A DNA stretch of 64,000 nt from an uncultured Gammaproteobacteria bacterium (GTDB lineage: Bacteria > Patescibacteriota > Microgenomatia > Levybacterales > UBA12049). Position 1 is the first letter of the stretch. Every line of letters starts with the position of its first letter. The notes beneath the pieces are model-generated. The model saw only the letters and a program-made list of their open reading frames with translations. It had not been told where the DNA came from and made no database searches. The stretch is taken from positions 234,972 to 298,971 of the forward strand of contig CAZCCG010000002.1 of assembly GCA_964497535.1 (NCBI GenBank), in the 5' to 3' direction. Below are positions 9,162 to 64,000 of the stretch, piece by piece. The position numbers and the translations under genes were made by a program.

Positions 9162-10072
9162 GCCGTATCAGAAAGAGGATGCATTTTAAAATGAATAAGC
9201 CCCTTTTGTACTTCTAATGGAATAATCTTTAATACTTGTTCCATTTTTGTTGTTACAAAACACGTGTTTTTAGGACGGGGAACAAAATTTTTGAAAAAAT
9301 CCAAAGTAACAGGATATAACATAGTACTATCTAATCCGAAAATCTCAGCGATATGTTTTGAAAAATCATATCTACTCATACATTCTTTTCCCGCAATATT
9401 AAAAGTTTCATCAATTTTTTCAAGCTCTATTGCTTTCCAGATGCTTTGTGCTGCCGACTCAACAGATAAGAAATTATTATACATATCGGTAACCATATTC
9501 ACGGGTGTTTTATTTTTCCCCATTATTTCCAAAAGCCACGTAAGAGGATTTTGCCGCTCATTCGGATTATTCCACCCATACATGGTAATAAGTCGAATAA
9601 CAATGTATGAAATTCCTGCGGACTTTGTCATCTTCTCTCCCTCATATTTGGTATATCCATAATAGTCAATTGGTCTTGGCTCTGCTTGTTCATCATAGGG
9701 AGCGTGCTCTCCATCATATATGCCATTGGTGGTGATATAGACCAGAGAACTTCCATATTTTTTACAGGCTTCGATAATGTTTTTTGTTCCGGTAATATTT
9801 ACTGCCTGCGCTTCATCTTTGTGTTTGTCACAATAATCGGGAGTTGCAATTGCCGCAGTATGGATAACAATATGGGGCTTAAATTCCGCAATAGCTTTTT
9901 CAACCATTGACTGATTTGTTATATCTACATGAAAGTACCTACAATCAACGTTTGGAACCAAATTGTTCTTATTATAAGAGGCGGCAAGCGTCACTCCTTG
10001 TGGAGCACTTCGTAAAAGTGTACTTCCTAATAACCCTGTAGATCCTGTTATAAATACTTTCATTGCAGACAT
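9146..10072 (-). CDS. dTDP-4-dehydrorhamnose reductase-like (RmlD-type) SDR.
   Basis: N-terminal KVFITGSTGLLGSTL Rossmann. YGYTKYEGEK matches the RmlD YGxTKxxGE catalytic motif. 308 aa. Confidence 0.6.
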   Translation of the reverse strand: MSAMKVFITGSTGLLGSTLLRSAPQGVTLAASYNKNNLVPNVDCRYFHVDITNQSMVEKAIAEFKPHIVIHTAAIATPDYCDKHKDEAQAVNITGTKNIIEACKKYGSSLVYITTNGIYDGEHAPYDEQAEPRPIDYYGYTKYEGEKMTKSAGISYIVIRLITMYGWNNPNERQNPLTWLLEIMGKNKTPVNMVTDMYNNFLSVESAAQSIWKAIELEKIDETFNIAGKECMSRYDFSKHIAEIFGLDSTMLYPVTLDFFKNFVPRPKNTCFVTTKMEQVLKIIPLEVQKGLIHFKMHPLSDTAWKEI

Positions 10073-54099: not shown

Positions 54100-54106
54100 A
54101 GGCCAC

Positions 54107-54184
54107 GGCCCCATCGTTCCCGATGGCTTACAGCCATCGAGGATCCTCGATGACAACGATCATCGGGACTAGTGGCCTAGGACA
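54107..54184 (+). other. Partial 5' duplicate of tRNA-Glu (positions 1-11 and 12-27) interrupted by a 51-nt nested-palindrome insert at the D-loop position. Likely pseudo-tRNA or structured RNA.
   Basis: GGCCCCATCGT (54107-54117) and CTAGTGGCCTAGGACA (54169-54184) are identical to the 5' 27 nt of the intact tRNA 321 nt downstream. Insert TCCCGATG...CATCGGGA contains the perfect palindrome ATCGAGGATCCTCGAT, a GGCT-tac-AGCC hairpin and a CCATCG/CGATGG pair. The whole element is additionally closed by AGGCCAC (54100-54106) / GTGGCCT (54172-54178). Confidence 0.5.
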
Positions 54185-54190
54185 AACGGA

Positions 54191-54442
54191 ATGTATACTT
54201 ATATTCTGAAAAGTCATCAGAATGGGAAATATTATATTGGTAGTACTACTGATATAAAAAATAGAGTTAAATCCCATAACAAAGGTTATTCTAAATACAC
54301 TAAAAGCAGAGGCCCATTCGATTTAATTTACAAAGAAGAATATAATACACTATCAGAGGCAAGAAAAAGAGAAAGTTATCTGAAATCACTCAAAAGTAGA
54401 AAAGCACTTGAAAAAATAATTAAAAACGGCCCCATCGTCTAG
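54191..54442 (+). CDS. GIY-YIG nuclease family protein (small, domain-only, 83 aa).
   Basis: YILKSHQNGKYYIGSTTDIKNRVKSHNKG...EARKRESYLKS matches the GIY-(x10)-YIG motif, catalytic Arg and conserved Glu. The last five codons (NGPIV-stop) are templated by nt 1-15 of the tRNA-Glu gene. Confidence 0.75.
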   Translation: MYTYILKSHQNGKYYIGSTTDIKNRVKSHNKGYSKYTKSRGPFDLIYKEEYNTLSEARKRESYLKSLKSRKALEKIIKNGPIV

Positions 54443-54500
54443 TGGCCTAGGACATCAGGTTCTCATCCTGAAAACTTGGATTCGAATTCCAATGGGGTCA
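54428..54500 (+). tRNA. tRNA-Glu (anticodon CUC).
   Basis: Manual cloverleaf: acceptor GGCCCCA/TGGGGTC (one G-U), D-arm, anticodon stem TCAGG/CCTGA with loop TTCTCAT (CTC at 54462-54464, U33, A37), variable loop AAAC, T-arm TTGGA-TTCGAAT-TCCAA, discriminator A. CCA not encoded. Strong similarity to bacterial tRNA-Glu D-arm (TCGTCTAGTGGCCTAGGAC). Confidence 0.85.
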
Positions 54501-54508
54501 CTAAAATT

Positions 54509-54781
54509 TTAAACTTTTTTATACTTCCAATAGAGATATTTCCCTATAATTAGGATCCATGCAAGTCCATAAAAAAATACAATTGTTGTTATATAAAACC
54601 AGGAATTAAGTGGCGCTAAAATTACTAAAGGGAAAAATAAAGGAATAAGAAGTAAAATGATAAATGCTATTGTAGCGCCTATTAAAAATTGCTTATTAGT
54701 AGTTAATTTACCTTCAGTATGGAAATCAGAATATTTAGTAATAGGTTCTTTAAGAAAATTTCCAAATGAATAATATTTCAC
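54509..54781 (-). CDS. Small 2-TM membrane protein (90 aa), paralogous to 55012-55296.
   Basis: N-terminal NFLKEPITKYSDF motif followed by two hydrophobic helices. Confidence 0.5.
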   Translation of the reverse strand: MKYYSFGNFLKEPITKYSDFHTEGKLTTNKQFLIGATIAFIILLLIPLFFPLVILAPLNSWFYITTIVFFYGLAWILIIGKYLYWKYKKV

Positions 54782-55011
54782 TACTTTAACTTTAACATAT
54801 TACTAGATAGTTATGAAATATTTTTAGTAAATAAATGAAAATACTTCACAAGATCAGGTATAACAAAATTCCGACCCTCGACCCTTTGGGTCGCTCAAAG
54901 CTATATTTTCTCTCGTGTGAAAACTTATCCGTTTTTCGAAGCTAAAATTGTTCGAAATACACTTTGGTTGTTTCCCTTGACATAAGTTCTAAAGTTTGAA
55001 ATGCTCTAATA

Positions 55012-55296
55012 GTGAAAAAGAAATATACAGTTATTGATTATTTAAAAGAACCACAAACTTTTTATGAAGGGTTTTCCCCTTTTAAAGCTCCTCCCTGGCG
55101 TATAATTCTCTATTGGCTCTTATTTGTATGTGGAATAACTTGGATTATGTTGAATTATGCAGATACATGGATGTTAGACACTTATAAACCTATAATCGTA
55201 TATGGAACAATCTTTATTATTATATATAATGTTCTCCGTTATTTTTATAGAAGACAACAAGTTTTGAGTAATACAAAAAATAAAAAACGATTCTAA
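55012..55296 (+). CDS. Small 2-TM membrane protein (94 aa, GTG start), paralogous to 54509-54781 and divergently oriented.
   Basis: DYLKEPQTFYEGF motif plus two hydrophobic helices. Its stop codon lies inside the 13-mer GATTCTAATACCC that opens direct repeat 1. Confidence 0.5.
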   Translation: MKKKYTVIDYLKEPQTFYEGFSPFKAPPWRIILYWLLFVCGITWIMLNYADTWMLDTYKPIIVYGTIFIIIYNVLRYFYRRQQVLSNTKNKKRF

Positions 55297-55395
55297 TACC
55301 CTATGGTAGTAAGAACTGAAGAAGAACTTGCCTCAGAATAAATTACACTCTTCCAAGCTTCCAAAGAACCCCTTATCTGGTTCCAATTCTGAATA
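55291..55395. repeat. Imperfect direct repeat copy 1 (about 100 bp).
   Basis: Shares GATTCTAATACCC ... ACTGAAGA ... CCAA-GAAC-CC--ATCTGGTTCCAATTC with 55861-55950. Confidence 0.55.
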
Positions 55396-55474
55396 CTAGC
55401 GTCACTGCAAGGCCGAAGATTCGGCCAAGATACATGAAATAATCTCAGGCAATGATCTACTCACACAATGAACG

Positions 55475-55771
55475 TCACGATTCTAGTTCCTGATCGGTAA
55501 GCCCCAGAGCTTTGCCCAAAGCGATCGAGTCAGCCAAAGTTTGCTCAGGAGTACTCTCTTCAATAGCGTTCGTATCAACACCCAGTTTCTTAGCTAATGC
55601 GATCGAGTCAGCAAGCGTTTGTTGTGCTGTTGAAGTCGGTTCTAAATCTCGAGTTGTAGGTAACCCGAGCGTCCCCTCCAATCGTCCGATGTGGTAAACC
55701 AATTGCTGCTGTGTTCGATTCAACGACTCGCCAAGCGGTTGCTCAGGAGTAGATAAAGATCCTTTTTCCAT
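55475..55771 (-). CDS. Small hydrophilic protein (98 aa) containing an internal tandem repeat. Function unknown.
   Basis: Strong SD (AAGGAGGTG) 8 nt upstream of ATG. TTGACT-17-TAATAC promoter-like element upstream. Internal repeat PEQTLADSIALAKKLGVDTNAIEEST / PEQTLADSIALGKALGLTDQELES. G+C visibly higher than neighbours. Confidence 0.6.
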   Translation of the reverse strand: MEKGSLSTPEQPLGESLNRTQQQLVYHIGRLEGTLGLPTTRDLEPTSTAQQTLADSIALAKKLGVDTNAIEESTPEQTLADSIALGKALGLTDQELES

Positions 55772-55860
55772 ACATTATTCACCTCCTTATTCCATTAATA
55801 TCATGAACCATGTTGCTCAAGTATTACATTACTGATAACTGCAAGTCAATAATTGATAAG

Positions 55861-55950
55861 ATTCTAATACCCGTACTGAAGATGAAATAGGTTCAGGTTG
55901 GATAATACTTATTGCTCCAATGAACTCCGAATCTGGTTCCAATTCGAAAG
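55861..55950. repeat. Imperfect direct repeat copy 2 (about 90 bp).
   Basis: See copy 1. Exact 13-mer GATTCTAATACCC and 15-mer ATCTGGTTCCAATTC shared. Confidence 0.55.
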
Positions 55951-55968
55951 AATTAGGACCACAGGAGA

Positions 55969-56688
55969 CTAAAATAGAGTTTGTTTAAACCAATTTACTG
56001 TTGCAGATCTAAACTCTTCTCTCCAAGAATCTTGAGATAAGTCATGAGTTGCTCCTTTTATTTCAATCAATTCTTTTCTCTTCGGATGAACAGGTGCATT
56101 AAGAAATGCATTAATCATTTTAGCAGGGATTATAGAATCTTTCTCCGACTCAATAATTAATATATCTCCAGTAAAATTTACTAGACTTCGGATAGCAGGG
56201 GTATTAGTAATATCCGACATATTATTAAATTTATCTTTTTCTATTTGCATAAGTTGTGTAAGAGTCAAACCCATCATAGAATCAGTGTAAGTTGCAGGGG
56301 CACGAAGAACTAAACTTTTAACTTTCCTCTTGTTGCTTACATATGCTGAAATACCTCCTCCAAAACTAGCACCACACATTCCTATCCTTTCATCATCAAT
56401 AGACTCATTTTTTACTAAATAATCATAAGCTTGCAATCCATCTAAAAAACCGTCGTGGACTTTAAAACTATTCCCTTCCGTATTTGATACAGCATGACCA
56501 CGTAAATTAATAGTCAAAGTAATTATTCCAATTTCTGCTAATCTCTCCCCGAGTGGAATATAGTTCTTTTCACTACTACTGAATCCATGAATTAGAATAA
56601 CGCCTGGATTTTTATGTCTTACTGTTTGAGGCAGAATAAGCGTACCTTGTATAACTTTGCCCTTACTACCAAAATTCACTTTCTGCAT
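55969..56688 (-). CDS. Alpha/beta-fold hydrolase (dienelactone hydrolase / S9 peptidase-like).
   Basis: GVILIHGFSSS, nucleophile elbow GMCGASFGGG (G-x-S-x-G), C-terminal His region KGATHDL. 239 aa. Confidence 0.7.
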   Translation of the reverse strand: MQKVNFGSKGKVIQGTLILPQTVRHKNPGVILIHGFSSSEKNYIPLGERLAEIGIITLTINLRGHAVSNTEGNSFKVHDGFLDGLQAYDYLVKNESIDDERIGMCGASFGGGISAYVSNKRKVKSLVLRAPATYTDSMMGLTLTQLMQIEKDKFNNMSDITNTPAIRSLVNFTGDILIIESEKDSIIPAKMINAFLNAPVHPKRKELIEIKGATHDLSQDSWREEFRSATVNWFKQTLF

Positions 56689-56709
56689 AAATCGATTATA
56701 ACATCTCTT

Positions 56710-56757
56710 TTGACTTCAGTATTATCCTCTAGTATAATCTCCTCCGTACATTGATAG
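56710..56757 (+). promoter_or_regulatory. Sigma70-like promoter A: TTGACT-17-TATAAT followed after 7 nt by the conserved 12-mer GTACATTGATAG.
   Basis: -35 at 56710-56715, -10 at 56733-56738, 12-mer at 56746-56757. Drives the four-gene plus-strand cassette. Confidence 0.6.
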
Positions 56758-56789
56758 GTGCAGAAGAAGTATCCGAAAGGGGAACGGCA

Positions 56790-57212
56790 ATGCAAAAACA
56801 CCGCTGGGATGACACCACAATTGGTACCTACTGGACATGGGAGATGCCAGAGTTAGCTCGTGAGCTTCCAATCCTGCTTCAGAAAGCAGGCCGAGTCGAG
56901 ATTCTTTCAGAACCTGACTTCCTCACGCGAGTTGTTATCAGGGTGCATCTTCATCAACCAGCAAAGGTTATCGATTGGGGGCAAAACTGGGGAGACGGCG
57001 TAGCAATCAACTCCGCCACCTATGCATGTTTTTCCCGTGGCTTCTCGGCCAACATGAAGCGACTACCTCGCGAGGGAGATACAGTCATCGAACTCGATAT
57101 CGAGCTGGAGATGAGGACGTTTAAAGAGGGACAGGAAATCACACTCGATGACATGCGTAAAGCGCTTCATGAATTCGCTGAACAGATAACCAAAACATGG
57201 TACTATCACTAG
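56790..57212 (+). CDS. Hypothetical protein (140 aa), first gene of G+C-rich cassette. Start placed at ATG with SD AAAGGGG (the track's TTG start at 56751 is less likely).
   Basis: MQKHRWDDTTIGTYWTWEMPELAREL... No recognisable motif. About 50% G+C. Confidence 0.55.
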   Translation: MQKHRWDDTTIGTYWTWEMPELARELPILLQKAGRVEILSEPDFLTRVVIRVHLHQPAKVIDWGQNWGDGVAINSATYACFSRGFSANMKRLPREGDTVIELDIELEMRTFKEGQEITLDDMRKALHEFAEQITKTWYYH

Positions 57213-57262
57213 CACTCACGCAGTTCATCACTGCAATGCTAGTAGCTCAGAAAGGGGCAACC

Positions 57263-57658
57263 ATGACTACCGATCCCCCAGTCCCTGAAGGAATGGAATG
57301 GGTACGCAGGTCAACTGCTGTTTATCGTCTGGGAATATCCGAGAGAGCGATATCCCAACGGGTAAAGACGGGAAAACTACTCAAACGTGGTGGTCCTAGA
57401 ACTGGTCAGCCTGCGGAAGTGCTAGTTCCCATCCAGATGCAAGACTCTGTTCTTCAACAGTATAGTAAAGTGCTAGAGCAGGGCATCGAATATGGCAAAC
57501 TTCTGCAACAACGCGACCATTTACTCACTCGTCTAGGAGAAACAGAACGCCGGGCGCAAGATGCAGAAGCCAAACTCAGTCAAGCAATGTCAAAGTTGGC
57601 TCAGTATGAAGTGCTTATGAGTACCATAGCTCAATTGATTCCATCGCACCTACGATGA
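57263..57658 (+). CDS. HTH DNA-binding protein (excisionase/MerR-like N-terminal helix-turn-helix plus C-terminal coiled coil), 131 aa.
   Basis: SD AAAGGGG before ATG. WVRRSTAVYRLGISERAISQRVKTGKL is a typical HTH. C-terminal heptad-rich QQRDHLLTRLGETERRAQDAEAKLSQAMSKLAQYEVL. Confidence 0.55.
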   Translation: MTTDPPVPEGMEWVRRSTAVYRLGISERAISQRVKTGKLLKRGGPRTGQPAEVLVPIQMQDSVLQQYSKVLEQGIEYGKLLQQRDHLLTRLGETERRAQDAEAKLSQAMSKLAQYEVLMSTIAQLIPSHLR

Positions 57659-57669
57659 CTATTCTACTC

Positions 57670-57700
57670 GGGCACCCTTCGGGGTGCCCTCTTTCGTTTA
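57670..57700 (+). terminator. Rho-independent terminator: GGGCACCC-TTCG-GGGTGCCC followed by TCTTTCGTTTA.
   Basis: Perfect 8-bp GC-rich stem with TTCG tetraloop and U-rich tail, 12 nt after the HTH gene stop. Confidence 0.7.
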
Positions 57701-57733
57701 TCCTTCTTCAACCTCTCAAAAGATTCAATTACC

Positions 57734-57781
57734 TTTACTTCTTCCCTACTCTTTCCTATAATGCCATCTGTACATTGATAG
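57734..57781 (+). promoter_or_regulatory. Sigma70-like promoter B: TTTACT-17-TATAAT followed after 7 nt by GTACATTGATAG (identical 12-mer and spacing as promoter A).
   Basis: -35 at 57734-57739, -10 at 57757-57762, 12-mer at 57770-57781. Confidence 0.55.
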
Positions 57782-57866
57782 CGAAAATATACCGCTCTGG
57801 CATTATCTTTATAAGTTTGCTTGTAAAAATGATGCTGGGGCGGCAGCAGAAAGTGAGGAACCCTAT

Positions 57867-58139
57867 ATGGGTCAAGGATATACACCTACCTTGGAAGGAT
57901 GGCCTGAGTGCCTGAGCACAGGAGGGAGTCGAGAAACTCTCTTACGACGGCTTGAGAGCGACAGGCAGCTTTACTGGATACGGCCACACCTGATCCAACG
58001 ATTTGGCAGTCTCGAAGCATCGCTGGACTTTATCACTACTCCCCGCAACGACCTGGATGGAAGGACGCTTTGGCAAGCGTTTGGATCGTTTCGGCCAGGA
58101 GAAGTGTTGGTAGTCCAGGATATCCTCAGGCGTCAGTAG
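57867..58139 (+). CDS. Hypothetical protein (90 aa).
   Basis: SD GAGGAA 8 nt upstream of ATG. MGQGYTPTLEGWPECLSTGG... Same strand and composition as the rest of the cassette. Confidence 0.5.
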   Translation: MGQGYTPTLEGWPECLSTGGSRETLLRRLESDRQLYWIRPHLIQRFGSLEASLDFITTPRNDLDGRTLWQAFGSFRPGEVLVVQDILRRQ

Positions 58140-58199
58140 CGAAATGATTCGTAGGGAAACCGCCTTCTTCCCTGCACATCGCCGAAAGGAATAAGCATC

Positions 58200-58796
58200 A
58201 TGGCCGACGATCAGACTAAGGCACATCAATGCTCTTTGTGCAAAACACCTGAAGATCAGGTAAAACTTATAGCTTGCCCCGAAGGCAGCTACTTCTGCGC
58301 CATCTGCGCTCAAAAATGGGCAGACGCCGCGATGGATTTGATCGGCGAAGACCCAATACAGCTTACAGACGCAGATATCGACGAGATCAGTCTTCGTATG
58401 CTCGCTGGGGAATCTGGCCAACCGCTTGAACTCGATGCACTTGGTATGCCTCGAGGACTACGGATCTCTGAAGATAGCTGGAGGGAAATCAAGCAGCACG
58501 TAAACGAAGTACTAGCAAGGAGTACGCCGATGGAACCGCAGGTATGCAAGTCTTACGAAGAAGCCAATCGGGTCAAAGACCGCCACCTACGAGAGCTCGT
58601 AGTACCTTTGACACTTACCGTGGGCGTATACAGCCGCTCCCGGGAAGAGGGAGACCCCGAACAATGGGTAATCGTAGTAGGACTCCGCAGGGAACCTACA
58701 GACCAAGAGCTGCAAGATCTTCCCATGGAGCTTGAAGGCATCCCTGTGCTGTATGAAAGAGAAGGGAGATCACAAGCAGCAAAGAAATCTGTCTAA
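58200..58796 (+). CDS. Cys-rich zinc-ribbon/zinc-finger protein (198 aa), function unknown.
   Basis: SD AAGGAA before ATG. N-terminal CSLC-x11-C-x6-CAIC cluster (C11, C14, C26, C33, C36). Acidic C-terminal half. Confidence 0.55.
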   Translation: MADDQTKAHQCSLCKTPEDQVKLIACPEGSYFCAICAQKWADAAMDLIGEDPIQLTDADIDEISLRMLAGESGQPLELDALGMPRGLRISEDSWREIKQHVNEVLARSTPMEPQVCKSYEEANRVKDRHLRELVVPLTLTVGVYSRSREEGDPEQWVIVVGLRREPTDQELQDLPMELEGIPVLYEREGRSQAAKKSV

Positions 58797-58816
58797 CTAT
58801 CAACGCAACCTACACC

Positions 58817-58852
58817 GCCCCCGAGGCTTCAGCTGAGGGGGCTTTTTTTATT
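58817..58852 (+). terminator. Rho-independent terminator: GCCCCC-(14 nt loop)-GGGGGC followed by T8.
   Basis: GC stem 58817-58822 / 58837-58842 plus TTTTTTTTAT tail, 20 nt after the zinc-ribbon gene stop. Confidence 0.7.
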
Positions 58853-58877
58853 TACAGATTCAAACTATAAAGCTCTA

Positions 58878-61010
58878 CTATTGATCTGAATTTGAAACTG
58901 GAAGAGTAATGTCTTCTCCAGTTCTTGCCGTATGGCTCACTAAAACCCGAGTGGGAATACCGTCTTTCTTCATCACCATACTTCCTCCATTAGAACCGCT
59001 GAGTTTGGCATCATATTTTTGTTCTATTCCTTCAACAGCATGATATGTCGTGCTGCTATATATTTTGCTACAACATTCATCATAAAAAGTGTTTTTCAGC
59101 GCTCCACTACTGATGCTACTTGCAGGGTCATATATTCTGCTGATTGTTGTGCTCAGTTGTAATCCCGGAAATGTTTGTAGTTTTGCTTTAAGCTCCGGGG
59201 TCAGAGGAAGAAATGTAGTCCCAATTGGTACAAATGTATCGGGTATGACATTTTCAAGATATACATTTTGTAGGTATGAATTTCGTGAATCATTGGTAAT
59301 CCCCAGTATTACTTGTGCAAGTACAGAGAGCATTTCATTCTCTCTTTTCGTATCAATTTTATTGGGATTTATAGAAATGAGATACCCGTTTGTATCCTGG
59401 ACTATTTTTTGCCCTGTAGGAGAATAGAGTGTTCCTCTTTTTCCTACCTGAGAAGTATAGGTAAAAGTAGTACCGGGAGTGAATTTATGCAGTAATAGAT
59501 CCCAATCCCACACAATTTTCCATTGTCCGTTTTCATTGACCAAGTTCATTGTTTTATCTTCTGAAAATGCACCAAGGTCTTGTGTTTTATAGATGACATG
59601 AAACTGTACTGATCCGTGGTTTCCAAAAAGAGGAATGGTTCGCTTTTTTTCAGAAACGGTTATATTTTTTACAGTAGCATTGATCAGTGCATTTTGTGCA
59701 ATTTTTCTAAATTGTTCTTGTGTCAACCCATTTTTGCTTGTCTGGGAAATATCTTCTGCATAGATGTCATGGAAATATTGATGGGAAAAATTATAGTAAT
59801 AATCCTGTATCGTAAATGGCTGGGTCGTTACCAGAAGCCAAGTAGTATAAAACAATCCCCCGCATGCCACAATAACAAAAAGAACTAATCCCACAGGTCG
59901 AAGCAGATACTTTTTAAATGCCTGCGCAAAAAGTAAATAGAGGATTGGAACAAAAAGAATTGTATAGCGGACATAAAAAGGAATATTGGTATAGATAAGA
60001 AGAGTTACTAACAAGAAAACGCATATTCCTTTGAGGAAAATATCTTTCTTTCGAGTTATGAGAGTTTTAACAGCAACACCAATACCTGCTACTGTAACAA
60101 TCGGCAGAAAAATCCACCATTCCCTGATCTTCTGAAAGGCTCCAGTAACAACATCTGGAAAATATCCAATAAGAATAGCATCCCATACAGACAAACGAAA
60201 CAATTGATTCTTGCCGTTGTAGTAAACCGATGCCATGTACTTATGCAGCTTGAGATAGTCCAGGATGGTATGACCCATAGCAAAATATCGAAAGTAAGGA
60301 ATAAATACTCCAACCACAAATGTAGCTAAAAATACTATGATAAAAATAAATCTCTTTTTGTAGAAAAGATAAACCAACTCCAAACAAAGAATTACAGGAA
60401 CCAGAAGCGGCGGCTTTGTTTCTGTAAAAAATCCCAGACTCAATCCGCTGATCCCAATCCATAGATACCTTATTTTGTGATTGGTATCGGTAACTGCATA
60501 GAAAAGAAAAAGAAAATTAATAAGGAGAAAAAGAAGCTGCAACAGATCCAGAGTGGTAGTCGTAAAATGAGTATAAACAAACGGCTCAACTACCAGTAAC
60601 GTTGTAGTCATCAGAGCTATTTTTTTATTTTTTAGTAATGCTTTGGCAAAAAAATAGAATGCTACAATAGTACCTATTCCAGTCAAAAATGCGAAGTAAA
60701 TGGGATTATGCAATAGGATAATACTTATGCCGATTAAATAGATTCCAACAGGAGGTTTATTGGCATTTGTCGTTTCGATACTGTCTCCCTGCATCATGCG
60801 ATATCCAGCATAACTATAAATTCCATCATCACCGATGATGCGTTGGGACAAAGGCAATGTCCACTGAGAATGTTCCATTCTATCTTTCCAATAAGAAACG
60901 TTATACTCCTGCAAAAAAAGATATCGGTTAAAATATAGTAATTGAAGAAATTGAAGAATAATGATTGCGAGGCAAAATAAGAAGAGCCGATTTTTTGTAA
61001 TAAAAGTCAT
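58878..61010 (-). CDS. Large membrane protein (710 aa): N-terminal polytopic GT-C-like domain (GDDGIYSYAGY loop motif) plus C-terminal soluble domain of about 330 aa.
   Basis: Long ORF. About 12 TM in the first 390 aa. IGDDGIYSYAGYRMMQG after TM1 resembles the acidic first-loop motif of GT-C enzymes. Confidence 0.55.
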   Translation of the reverse strand: MTFITKNRLFLFCLAIIILQFLQLLYFNRYLFLQEYNVSYWKDRMEHSQWTLPLSQRIIGDDGIYSYAGYRMMQGDSIETTNANKPPVGIYLIGISIILLHNPIYFAFLTGIGTIVAFYFFAKALLKNKKIALMTTTLLVVEPFVYTHFTTTTLDLLQLLFLLINFLFLFYAVTDTNHKIRYLWIGISGLSLGFFTETKPPLLVPVILCLELVYLFYKKRFIFIIVFLATFVVGVFIPYFRYFAMGHTILDYLKLHKYMASVYYNGKNQLFRLSVWDAILIGYFPDVVTGAFQKIREWWIFLPIVTVAGIGVAVKTLITRKKDIFLKGICVFLLVTLLIYTNIPFYVRYTILFVPILYLLFAQAFKKYLLRPVGLVLFVIVACGGLFYTTWLLVTTQPFTIQDYYYNFSHQYFHDIYAEDISQTSKNGLTQEQFRKIAQNALINATVKNITVSEKKRTIPLFGNHGSVQFHVIYKTQDLGAFSEDKTMNLVNENGQWKIVWDWDLLLHKFTPGTTFTYTSQVGKRGTLYSPTGQKIVQDTNGYLISINPNKIDTKRENEMLSVLAQVILGITNDSRNSYLQNVYLENVIPDTFVPIGTTFLPLTPELKAKLQTFPGLQLSTTISRIYDPASSISSGALKNTFYDECCSKIYSSTTYHAVEGIEQKYDAKLSGSNGGSMVMKKDGIPTRVLVSHTARTGEDITLPVSNSDQ

Positions 61011-61574: not shown

Positions 61575-62266
61575 TTAAGAAATTTTCTTCCTGCGCTTTC
61601 GTGAGCGTGTTGTTCCGCCCTTTGCTCCCATTGTCATATATGAACCTTTATCAAATCGGGATCTCGGAACATAATTCTCATCGATATCTGCATCAACTTC
61701 TCGTCTCATAAATCGATCCATAGGTTGAGTTACGGAATTGATATCGGTTGCACCATTTTGTTCCATGATATTCCATACTTCGTCTTCCCGATCGGCATAT
61801 GTTGGTACCGCCAGAAGAATCGCACCTTCACGAATTTTGCTTTCATATACTTCTGCCTGTTCCCGTGGAATTCCAAAACCCATAAGTGCTCCGATAATTC
61901 CTCCTGCTACTGCTCCTGTCGCGGCACCTGATACGGTAGTTGCTGCTGCTCCGGTAAGACCAAGCGCTGCTGCCAAAGGACCACCAATGAGAATCCCTCC
62001 AATGCCAGGAATTGCTATGGTACCTACTCCTACTAATAAACCTGCAATACCACCGACAACTGCCCCTGTGGTAGCACCGGTAACTGCTCCCTCTGCAACA
62101 TCTACTCCGGTTGTATCGGAAATATCATGCGCTTCATCTGTATCACGCATAACAAGGGAAATATCTTTGGTGCGATATCCTGCAGTTTCCAGATCGGAAA
62201 TGGCGTTTTCCGCATTATCACGATTTGTATAAATACCAAATATTGTTTTTGCAATTTGCATCATAT
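61575..62266 (-). CDS. General-stress-protein-like (YflT/DUF1269-type N-terminal domain) with Gly/Ala-rich glycine-zipper membrane segment. About 230 aa.
   Basis: Start set at ATGATG with SD AGGAGGTG 5 nt upstream (the track's start at 62288 lacks an SD). N-terminal IFGIYTNRDNAENAISDLETAGYRTKDISLV. Central GAVTGATTGAVVGGIAGLLVGVG...GGIIGALMG repeats. Confidence 0.55.
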
Positions 62267-62384
62267 TCACCTCCTTTAAAACTCTCATTCCATTCTAAAA
62301 AAGGGAAATAAAATCTAAACAATAATTACGTAAGAGTTAAGAAAGAGTACGTCTACGGCCAAGTGCTTTACGCTTTACGCTTAA

Positions 62385-64000
62385 TTAGTCTGCTTTATAT
62401 GGGGAGGGTGCGTGAAGTACAGGACGTTGAGAAGCATGTGACTCATGTCCCTTTATTACTAATGGTTTTTTGAAAGCAACAGGTAATATTTCATCCATAT
62501 GGCTTACGAATACAAATTTGAGATCCCGCAATACTTCTTTTGGCACATCTTCCAAATCTTTCTTGTTTTCTTTCGGCAGGATTATAGTCTTGAGCCCTGC
62601 CCGATGAGCTGCTATTACTTTCTCTTTTACTCCTCCAATTTCTAAGACCCGTCCGCGAAGGGTTACTTCCCCTGTCATTCCTACTTTGCGATTCACAGGG
62701 ATTTTGGTAAGGGCCGATAAAATCGCGGTGGTTATTGCCCCTCCTGCTGAAGGACCATCTTTGGGAACAGCACCTTCCGGTACATGAACGTGTACATCGA
62801 GCTTATTATAAAACCCTTCTGCCAAACCAAATTGCTTTGCTCGTGCACGAATATATGAAAGTGCCGCTTGGCATGATTCCTTCATAACATCTCCCAGCTG
62901 TCCCGTAAGAAGCAGATGTCCATGTCCGGGCATCAGAGCTACTTCTATAAAAAGGATATCTCCGCCTGCTTCAGTCCATGCAAGGCCGGTGGACATACCG
63001 AATTCGTCCTTCTTTTCAATTAGTGTAGAACGATACCGAATGGTTCCCAAATATTTCGTGACATCGGATTCAGTTATAACGGTCTTACCTTTCTTCCCTT
63101 CAGCCACTTTTCTGGCAACTTTTCTAAAAAGTGTAGCGAGTTGTCGTTCAAGATTTCGTACCCCTGCCTCACGGGTGAAATGATTAATAACAAAGCGGAC
63201 TGCGTCATCGCTGACTTCTACCTTACTATCTGAAAGGCCATGCATTTCCATTTGTTTTTTGACAAGAAAATTTTTGGCTATCTGGAATTTCTCATCATGG
63301 GTATATCCGGCAAAATGGATAATTTCCAAACGATCACGGAGAGCAGGAGGAATGGTATCCAATACGTTGGCTGTTGTCACAAACATAACATTTGAGAGAT
63401 CAAATGGTGCTTCCAGATAATGATCTGAGAATTGACTGTTTTGCTCAGGATCAAGTGCTTCCAACAGCGCTGATGAAGGATCACCACGAAAATCTGTACC
63501 AACTTTATCTATTTCATCAAGCATAAAAACCGGATTTTTGGTTCCTGCGTCTTTGATGCCTTGGATAATGCGTCCCGGAAGGGCACCTACATAGGTTCGT
63601 CTATGTCCTCGAATTTCAGCCTCATCACGAATTCCTCCCAGTGATACTCGAACAAATTCACGACCCAATGCGCGCGCAATTGATTTCCCAATCGATGTCT
63701 TTCCTACTCCTGGTGGTCCGACAAAACACAAGATGGGTCCTTTCATTTTCCCGGAGAGTTTGTGTACTGCCAGGTATTCCAGAATCCGCTCTTTTGCCTT
63801 TTGCAATCCATAATGATCTTCATCCAATGTCTTTTCGGCTGTCTTAATATCAACACTATCTTTGCTTTCCTTACTCCAGGGAAGACTTACTAACCATTCC
63901 AGATAATTCCGAATATAACCGGCTTCCGGATTGAATTGATTCATTTGAGCAAGTTTGCGGACTTCCTTACGTGCTTTATCTTCTACTTCTTCAGGCATCC
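62385..64000 (-). CDS. lon: ATP-dependent Lon protease (La), C-terminal about 540 aa. N-terminus lies beyond window end.
   Basis: Walker [16 protein letters not shown]. Walker [10 protein letters not shown]. Proteolytic domain [20 protein letters not shown] (catalytic Ser) and downstream Lys. Strong collinearity with Lon. ORF runs to the window edge. Confidence 0.9.

Follow-up and report, generated by a model that had tools for sequence, protein, structure and literature searches.

Does the DNA on the 3' side of a transfer RNA (tRNA) gene for glutamate form a single integrative island in this Patescibacteria genome? We examined this question in a stretch of 64,000 nucleotides (nt) of contig CAZCCG010000002.1 (assembly GCA_964497535.1), hereafter called the window, which has an overall G+C content of 36.4% and is dominated by glycosylation genes, with a minus-strand run extending from about 1.4 kilobases (kb) to 54,015. 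The original prediction held that positions 54501 to 58870 make up one accessory zone anchored at the 3' side of tRNA-Glu. Our analysis indicates that this zone is indeed mosaic, accessory and partly foreign, yet that it is neither tRNA-anchored nor one island. The elements needed to follow the argument are listed below, with protein lengths in amino acids (aa).

54428-54501, plus strand: intact tRNA-Glu, anticodon CTC (ARAGORN; Rfam RF00005, 57.5 bits, E = 1.6e-10)
54509-54781, minus strand: mem1, open reading frame for a small predicted membrane protein of 90 aa, 25.6% G+C, convergent with the tRNA
55012-55296, plus strand: mem2, open reading frame for a small predicted membrane protein of 94 aa, possibly a distant mem1 paralog
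55287-55390, plus strand: left copy of the imperfect direct repeat R, found by alignment
55475-55771, minus strand: open reading frame for a 98-aa orphan protein, 48% G+C, with cassette-like composition
55858-55945, plus strand: right copy of the imperfect direct repeat R, found by alignment
55969-56688, minus strand: alpha/beta-fold hydrolase of 239 aa (Hydrolase_4, E = 5e-15; also Abhydrolase_1, Peptidase_S9 and DLH)
56739-58842: G+C-rich block with four plus-strand genes, A to D

The change in composition and content announced beyond the tRNA was recovered by G+C content, by G+C at third codon positions (GC3), by tetranucleotides and by a Markov model. Segmentation with a two-state hidden Markov model (HMM) delimited a plus-strand cassette of 2104 base pairs (bp) with 50.2% G+C, very close to the value of about 50% that had been given for it, as compared with 35.8 +/- 1.8% in background windows of 2150 bp; this corresponds to a z-score of 7.6, and the tetranucleotide distance of the block has a z-score of 4.3. 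The composition of the zone is thus far from uniform. The four genes of the block display GC3 values of 0.39-0.53 versus 0.17-0.35 for host genes, and their open reading frames show the coding pattern in which G+C is higher at first than at second codon positions (GC1 > GC2). Lon and YflT, two native genes with elevated G+C, have a host-like GC3 of 0.27-0.33. We trained a second-order Markov model to tell the block from the host, and positive log-odds were confined to two patches, namely the block and the segment carrying the 98-aa gene. With a z-score of +5.1 to +6.8, the latter resembles the cassette over the host. A GC3 of 0.21 and a Markov log-odds z of 0.14 place the hydrolase gene with the host, and mem1 and mem2 appear extra A+T-rich under the same model. 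Altogether, the G+C-rich block and the 98-aa patch are horizontally acquired, compositionally alien DNA.

The foreign composition is limited to about 55391-55857 and to 56739-58842, so that it starts 0.9 kb and 2.2 kb from the tRNA, and the tRNA-proximal 0.9 kb are host-like or richer in A+T (26-28% G+C for mem1 and mem2). Since a host-like hydrolase gene lies between the two foreign patches, the zone is to be regarded as a mosaic and not as a single island. The attachment (att)-like repeats of the tRNA 3' end that were to be sought near the far border did not appear: a second copy of the last 23 nt of the tRNA is absent across the 64 kb with up to 3 mismatches allowed, and the longest exact match between the tRNA with its flank and positions 54531-59300 is 10 nt long, against 9.3 nt on average and 12 nt at most in shuffled sequences. 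The zone had also been described as devoid of recombinases, and Pfam scans of its sense open reading frames and of the larger antisense ones agree with this, as they returned no integrase, recombinase or transposase domain. A tRNA standing beside odd-looking genes is insufficient for calling an integrative island; in the present case, the composition, the absence of an att repeat and the layout in patches speak for an acquisition piece by piece, in an inter-operon gap.

The G+C-rich block and the small genes of the zone

The elements of the block are the following.

56710-56738, plus strand: P1, predicted sigma-70-type promoter, TTGACT-17-TATAAT, 11/12 matches
56790-57212, plus strand: gene A, 140 aa, member of a small orphan family
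57263-57658, plus strand: gene B, 131 aa, with an N-terminus that looks winged helix-turn-helix-like and a C-terminus that looks coiled-coil-like by eye
57670-57689, plus strand: T1, predicted intrinsic terminator after A and B, 8-bp stem with 7 G-C pairs and a T-rich tail
57734-57762, plus strand: P2, predicted sigma-70-type promoter, TTTACT-17-TATAAT
57867-58139, plus strand: gene C, 90-aa orphan
58200-58796, plus strand: gene D, 198 aa, with a putative C4 zinc ribbon of the ClpX type at the N-terminus, an alpha/beta domain at the C-terminus and, between them, a part predicted with low confidence
58823-58845, plus strand: T2, predicted intrinsic terminator that closes the block, T-run to 58852 (HMM boundary at 58842)

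The block is predicted to consist of two transcription units, P1 - A - B - T1 followed by P2 - C - D - T2. The closing terminator had been seen previously and is found again, ahead of the minus-strand host genes; it lies 26 nt from the stop codon of a convergent host gene encoding a 710-aa protein. An identical 12-mer, GTACATTGATAG, stands exactly 7 nt past the -10 box of both P1 and P2. It occurs at 56746 and 57770 only in the 64 kb, the promoters with their 12-mers spanning 56710-56757 and 57734-57781, and at least two matches to it were obtained in just 4 of 100 shuffles. In addition, genes A and B have an identical ribosome-binding context, GAAAGGGG. We propose that the 12-mer could be a common operator or start-site element coupling both operons, and that protein B may bind it through its helix-turn-helix-like N-terminus. 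As for protein D, one could speculate that its zinc ribbon binds partners of the ClpX N-domain, such as adaptors or degradation tags, and that it may thereby modulate proteolysis. Taken together, these features would describe a co-regulated accessory module made of a DNA-binding regulator, B, and of a protein mimicking the ClpX N-domain, D, a reading in which we have low confidence.

Neither genes A to D nor the 98-aa protein, mem1 and mem2 gave anything significant in Pfam, PHROG, NCBIfam and PADLOC. The search for a donor was equally negative. The cassette had no match by blastn and tblastn among 50,697 GenBank phages and 72,556 PLSDB plasmids, scans of IMG/VR with A (as an alignment), B, C and D returned no match, and nothing was found in PHROGs below E = 0.009.

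Gene A is the member of the block for which we could find relatives. It has four homologs with 49-54% identity, all on metagenome contigs, in four unrelated contexts, and B, C and D accompany none of them. The homolog has a GC3 of 0.59-0.65 in three of these contexts, versus 0.29-0.47 for its neighbours. Three A-family genes (L008:612-1037, L009:655-1089 and L012:224-646, the handles being those of the contigs) have about 50-53% G+C inside contigs of 37-45%, the copy in L008 standing out as a G+C peak one gene wide and having a terminator of its own; the copy in L007 has the same composition as its surroundings. This suggests repeated recent transfers of the A family from a G+C-richer pool. 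The family was found neither in 185,579 species-representative genomes, by a pattern scan, nor in IMG/VR, and an alignment of A run against metagenome contigs recovered only an already-known contig. The AlphaFold model of the protein has a predicted local distance difference test score (pLDDT) of 77 and a predicted template modelling score (pTM) of 0.71, and no fold match was obtained for it in the PDB or in BFVD (none at E <= 0.001 in the latter).

The 5' leader of three A-family genes contains a candidate long hairpin with a consensus stem of 23 pairs (L008:529-589, L012:~124-185 and L007:~9914-9975). Five of these pairs are preserved through changes on both sides among the three sequences compared, and a conserved TTGCAC...TTGCGGAA element is present upstream of the hairpin in the three of them. 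Gene A of the window lacks this hairpin leader and has the P1/12-mer leader in its place.

Gene B gave a faint match to the winged helix-turn-helix of AbiEi_4 (E = 0.095), and PDB sequence searches with B and C had no match. For gene C, GC1, GC2 and GC3 are 0.60, 0.48 and 0.53, and the excess of GC1 over GC2 supports coding. Inspection by eye had suggested a DUF2384 antitoxin domain in this protein; family searches gave no support to this idea, which was dropped.

Among 5.8 billion proteins, gene D stands alone as a singleton, and when 1.84 billion representatives were scanned exhaustively with HMMER, the matches stayed at the level of domains. Its residues 10-39 carry the pattern C11-x2-C14 ... 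C33-x2-C36 and match PF06689 with 20.9 bits (cutoff 27, E = 3.4e-4). Residues 9-48 match two proteins, P0064 and P0070 (phmmer E = 8e-8 and 7e-5), that contain three to four copies of PF06689, P0064 being a protein with four ClpX zinc fingers. At the other end, residues 108-196 match stand-alone proteins of 90-107 aa, and this C-terminal domain is modelled with a pLDDT of 74-94. The model shows a weak, non-significant likeness to the N-region of Nal1, to the pro-region of alpha-lytic protease and to the C-terminal domain of MamM. Matches of the middle region to giant He_PIG/Ig-repeat proteins look compositional and were set aside.

The remaining small genes correspond to the other parts of the original prediction. 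The two divergent membrane genes are present, and their paralogy, which had been taken as given, is plausible but weak on the basis of their sequences: over the whole length, the Smith-Waterman comparison gives z = 1.9 and BLASTP is not significant, and a motif common to both proteins, K-x-Y-x5-LKEP-x-T-x-Y-x2-F, lies in the N-terminal 30 residues, whose comparison gives z = 5.7 (0/2000 shuffles). The repeat-flanked small gene also exists as described, in the form of a segment of about 470 bp that carries the 98-aa gene with its own promoter between R repeats of about 90-100 nt; a promoter-like site for this gene is located at 55849-55820 on the minus strand. The R copies share exact 13-mers and 15-mers and a near-exact 14-mer, all of them confined to these two sites in the 64 kb. 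The lone PADLOC match of the 98-aa protein (E = 0.023) is at chance level. Within the gene, a tandem duplication of 78 nt (26 aa; D1/D2, 55503-55631) encodes PEQTLADSIAL-x-K-x-LG. The hydrolase gene, finally, was correctly recognized.

A GIY-YIG gene on the 5' side of the tRNA

The clearest apparent insertion scar at this locus is on the 5' side of the tRNA, outside the interval that had been predicted. Three elements are involved.

54105-54184, plus strand: incomplete second copy of the 5' part of tRNA-Glu (nt -2 to +27), in a displaced position, seen as an exact 13-mer and an exact 16-mer
54118-54168: palindrome-rich insert of 51 nt that splits the displaced tRNA copy after nt 11
54191-54442, plus strand: GIY-YIG gene, 83 aa, nuclease domain alone (PF01541, 63 bits, E = 3e-17)

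The 5' part of the tRNA (54426-54454, 29 nt) is duplicated upstream in two blocks, the 13-mer 54105-54117 being identical to 54426-54438 and the 16-mer 54169-54184 to 54439-54454. The insert that separates them holds a perfect 18-nt palindrome (54135-54152) with GGATCC at its centre, as well as alternating CGATG/CATCG motifs, and the region of the displaced copy has a folding z-score of -3.5. The GIY-YIG gene sits between this partial copy and the intact tRNA, and its final 15 nt overlap the 5' end of the latter, so that its stop codon falls within the D-arm. The GIY-YIG domain covers residues 1-70 of the protein, in which Pfam detected no DNA-binding or other domain. No additional copy of the 51-nt insert, of the R repeat or of a GIY-YIG paralog exists within the window, and a literature search on small GIY-YIG or UPF0213 proteins found nothing relevant.

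With 29 nt of the tRNA 5' part repeated on either side of the open reading frame, the layout would fit an insertion at tRNA position 27/28. We propose that a cassette composed of the open reading frame and of a tRNA 5' part could have entered the tRNA at this position. The replacement 5' part carried by the GIY-YIG cassette would then have regenerated an intact tRNA, and the displaced 5' fragment would have been left upstream.

This arrangement can be compared with phage T4 SegB, which exemplifies the free-standing GIY-YIG homing endonuclease genes found in tRNA clusters (PMC2330249). In both cases a free-standing GIY-YIG gene lies directly against a tRNA, a conserved target that tolerates co-conversion. 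However, the 83-aa protein described here is a catalytic domain only, without a DNA-binding domain, and its gene is bracketed by the 29-nt duplication of the tRNA 5' part, which does not look like a product of classical homing.

Routes of acquisition and their alternatives

The interval in question extends from the start of the glycosylation operon (54015) to position 58878, where the GT39/PBP-dimer gene of the minus strand has its 3' end, and this gap between operons tolerates insertions. The explanation that we favour, and which we consider reasonably probable, is that the gap collected several independent small pieces, including recent imports, and that these do not form one island. Mem1, mem2 and the hydrolase gene have resident composition. 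The 98-aa patch and the 2.1-kb module, mutually similar in composition, are recent, un-ameliorated imports, and they would have entered by recombination not using the tRNA. Patescibacteria commonly have genes for competence and pili (PMC12455944), which makes uptake of DNA a likely entry; illegitimate or short-homology recombination would then have incorporated it, and this is the simplest route.

Several points weigh against this explanation. The insertion events and their order are deduced from composition alone. The R repeats are about 75% identical, which is a poor fit to a very recent target-duplicating insertion. P1 lies within 50 A+T-rich nt shared with the promoter region of the hydrolase gene, which leaves a margin of about 50 nt on where the import begins at its left side. 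The similar composition of the two patches is no proof of a common donor. Lastly, the helix-turn-helix of B comes from the faint AbiEi_4 match and from inspection by eye, and the zinc ribbon of D scores below the Pfam cutoff.

One would also wonder whether other scenarios account better for the same facts. A degenerate island covering 54501-58870 at the 3' end of tRNA-Glu, with its integrase lost or mobilised in trans, would explain that the zone begins at the tRNA, finishes at a terminator just before host-like genes and contains orphan or accessory genes in mixed orientation, and a relative does hold an HTH_17 protein and a large serine recombinase elsewhere. We nevertheless regard it as improbable, given that the tRNA 3'-end repeat and any recombinase or remnant of it are absent, that the tRNA-proximal 0.9 kb and the hydrolase gene are host-like or more A+T-rich, and that the foreign DNA is in two separate patches. 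The 2.1-kb block alone could be the remnant of the regulatory region of a prophage, a plasmid or an integrative element whose remainder was deleted. This is unlikely but deserves to be kept in mind: the layout in two compact operons with their own promoters and terminators, the shared operator-like 12-mer, the foreign composition and the excisionase/AbiEi-like helix-turn-helix look of B all speak in its favour, as does a Bro-N gene adjoining one of the A homologs. Bro-N is a domain common in phages. On the other hand, sequences, families and structures from GenBank phages, PLSDB, IMG/VR, PHROGs and BFVD revealed no viral or plasmid similarity, and the A homologs are solitary and stand outside elements.

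Could the block then be a toxin-antitoxin or anti-phage defence module made of two gene pairs? Its genes are small and paired in a hotspot-like location, the A homolog of L012 is near PIN-domain genes, and in a relative AbiEii adjoins the orthologous GT39 gene. However, toxin, antitoxin and defence families of PADLOC and Pfam gave no match and the gene pairs are not kept together anywhere examined, which makes this scenario highly improbable. As the source is a metagenome-assembled genome, and as high G+C can stem from amino-acid content (as in Lon and YflT), an assembly chimera or resident genes of odd composition also had to be envisaged. Contigs of Logan, separately assembled from SRR9179560, SRR9179562 and SRR9179563, are 100% identical to the window; the right junction of the G+C-rich block is contained in each of them and the left one in two. 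None of these run accessions turned up in a literature search. Both junctions being reproduced across three independent assemblies, the structure is not a chimera. The rise concerns GC3 as well as GC1 and GC2, and the positive Markov log-odds are restricted to two patches, so that we hardly give any credit to this last scenario as a whole.

Coming back to the piecemeal filling of the gap, a parallel can be drawn with several known systems. Classical tRNA-anchored islands possess a tyrosine integrase and an att repeat of the tRNA 3' end. The present locus resembles them by its accessory genes beside a tRNA, part of which are foreign in composition, but it has no integrase and no tRNA-derived direct repeat of that kind, and host-like or A+T-richer DNA separates its foreign patches from the tRNA; the sole duplication is that of the tRNA 5' part, tied to the GIY-YIG gene. 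Phage morons are self-sufficient units that contain a promoter, a gene and a terminator and whose composition is deviant. The two halves of the block are likewise built of promoter, genes and terminator and differ in composition from what surrounds them, and the A homolog of L008 is a single such unit; unlike morons, these units have no surrounding prophage and no viral homology. Another likeness is with the Patescibacteria themselves, in which hundreds of genomic islands and individually transferred genes have been described and in which competence and pilus genes are widespread (PMC12455944). These segments with anomalous G+C or oligonucleotides occur in streamlined genomes and often have no mobility genes. 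The locus studied here differs by its size (just 2.1 kb and 0.5 kb), by holding orphan genes only, by having no identified donor, and by its paired promoters with a shared 12-mer.

The event thus belongs to a known kind, the small-scale horizontal acquisition of genes, here of true orphans, and it provides an assembly-verified case in Patescibacteria of orphan genes that came in very recently and brought their own expression signals. Two leads come out of it, namely the rare G+C-rich A family and the GIY-YIG gene within the 5' duplication of the tRNA, and its practical value is modest unless these prove general. A very speculative and doubtful extension, to which we lend little credence, would combine both leads as two integrase-free routes of gene gain. 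In the one, promoter-gene-terminator cassettes of about 50% G+C, such as those of the A family, would circulate one gene at a time between genomes of low G+C and be locally stitched into operator-sharing modules. In the other, a minimal 83-aa GIY-YIG gene would invade the 5' side of a tRNA with a replacement 5' part; within this joint reading, such an invasion may mirror the integration at tRNA 3' ends. Either route, if true and general, would represent a new kind of small mobile unit.

Flanking genes and assembly ends

To the right of the zone, the minus strand carries the gene of the 710-aa fusion protein, a NUDIX gene, a YflT-like gene and Lon.

58878-61010, minus strand: gene of a 710-aa protein in which a GT39/PMT-like membrane domain is fused to MecA_N and PBP-dimer domains

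Conserved synteny of the zone, an outcome contrary to the original prediction, was not seen, and the test is a weak one, with the nearest relatives being about 50% identical in the flanking protein. The contigs of relatives (L004, L006 and one JGI contig), with at most 53% identity in the 710-aa protein, have different neighbours and no tRNA nearby, and they are too distant for a comparison of synteny. The homologs of this protein all belong to Patescibacteria, the top identity being 53% and that of a Levybacteria protein 46%, which places the source among uncultured bacteria of the candidate phyla radiation that lack close sequenced relatives. A scan of the 185,579 species-representative genomes with this protein found no match. 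Its architecture is kept across 56 Patescibacteria homologs. The protein is composed of a GT39/PMT-like glycosyltransferase region, an NTF2-like MecA_N domain and a PBP-dimerisation domain, and a transpeptidase domain was not detected in it. In the relative L004 (L004:1400-3221, GCA_035510695.1), an HTH_17/MerR-like gene is followed by a large serine recombinase, adjoining secA; integrase-type elements therefore exist in the lineage, though none is present in the window.

Further to the right, the HMM segmentation delimited a second segment of raised G+C, at 61781-64000 (43.6%), which spans the YflT-like gene and Lon. As their GC3 is host-like, this rise comes from amino-acid content and not from import.

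Finally, two of the independent Logan assemblies, L001 and L002, both start at base 2 of the tRNA (window position 54429). This suggests a branch point of the assembly graph where the tRNA begins, owing either to strain variation upstream or to a tRNA sequence common to other organisms.

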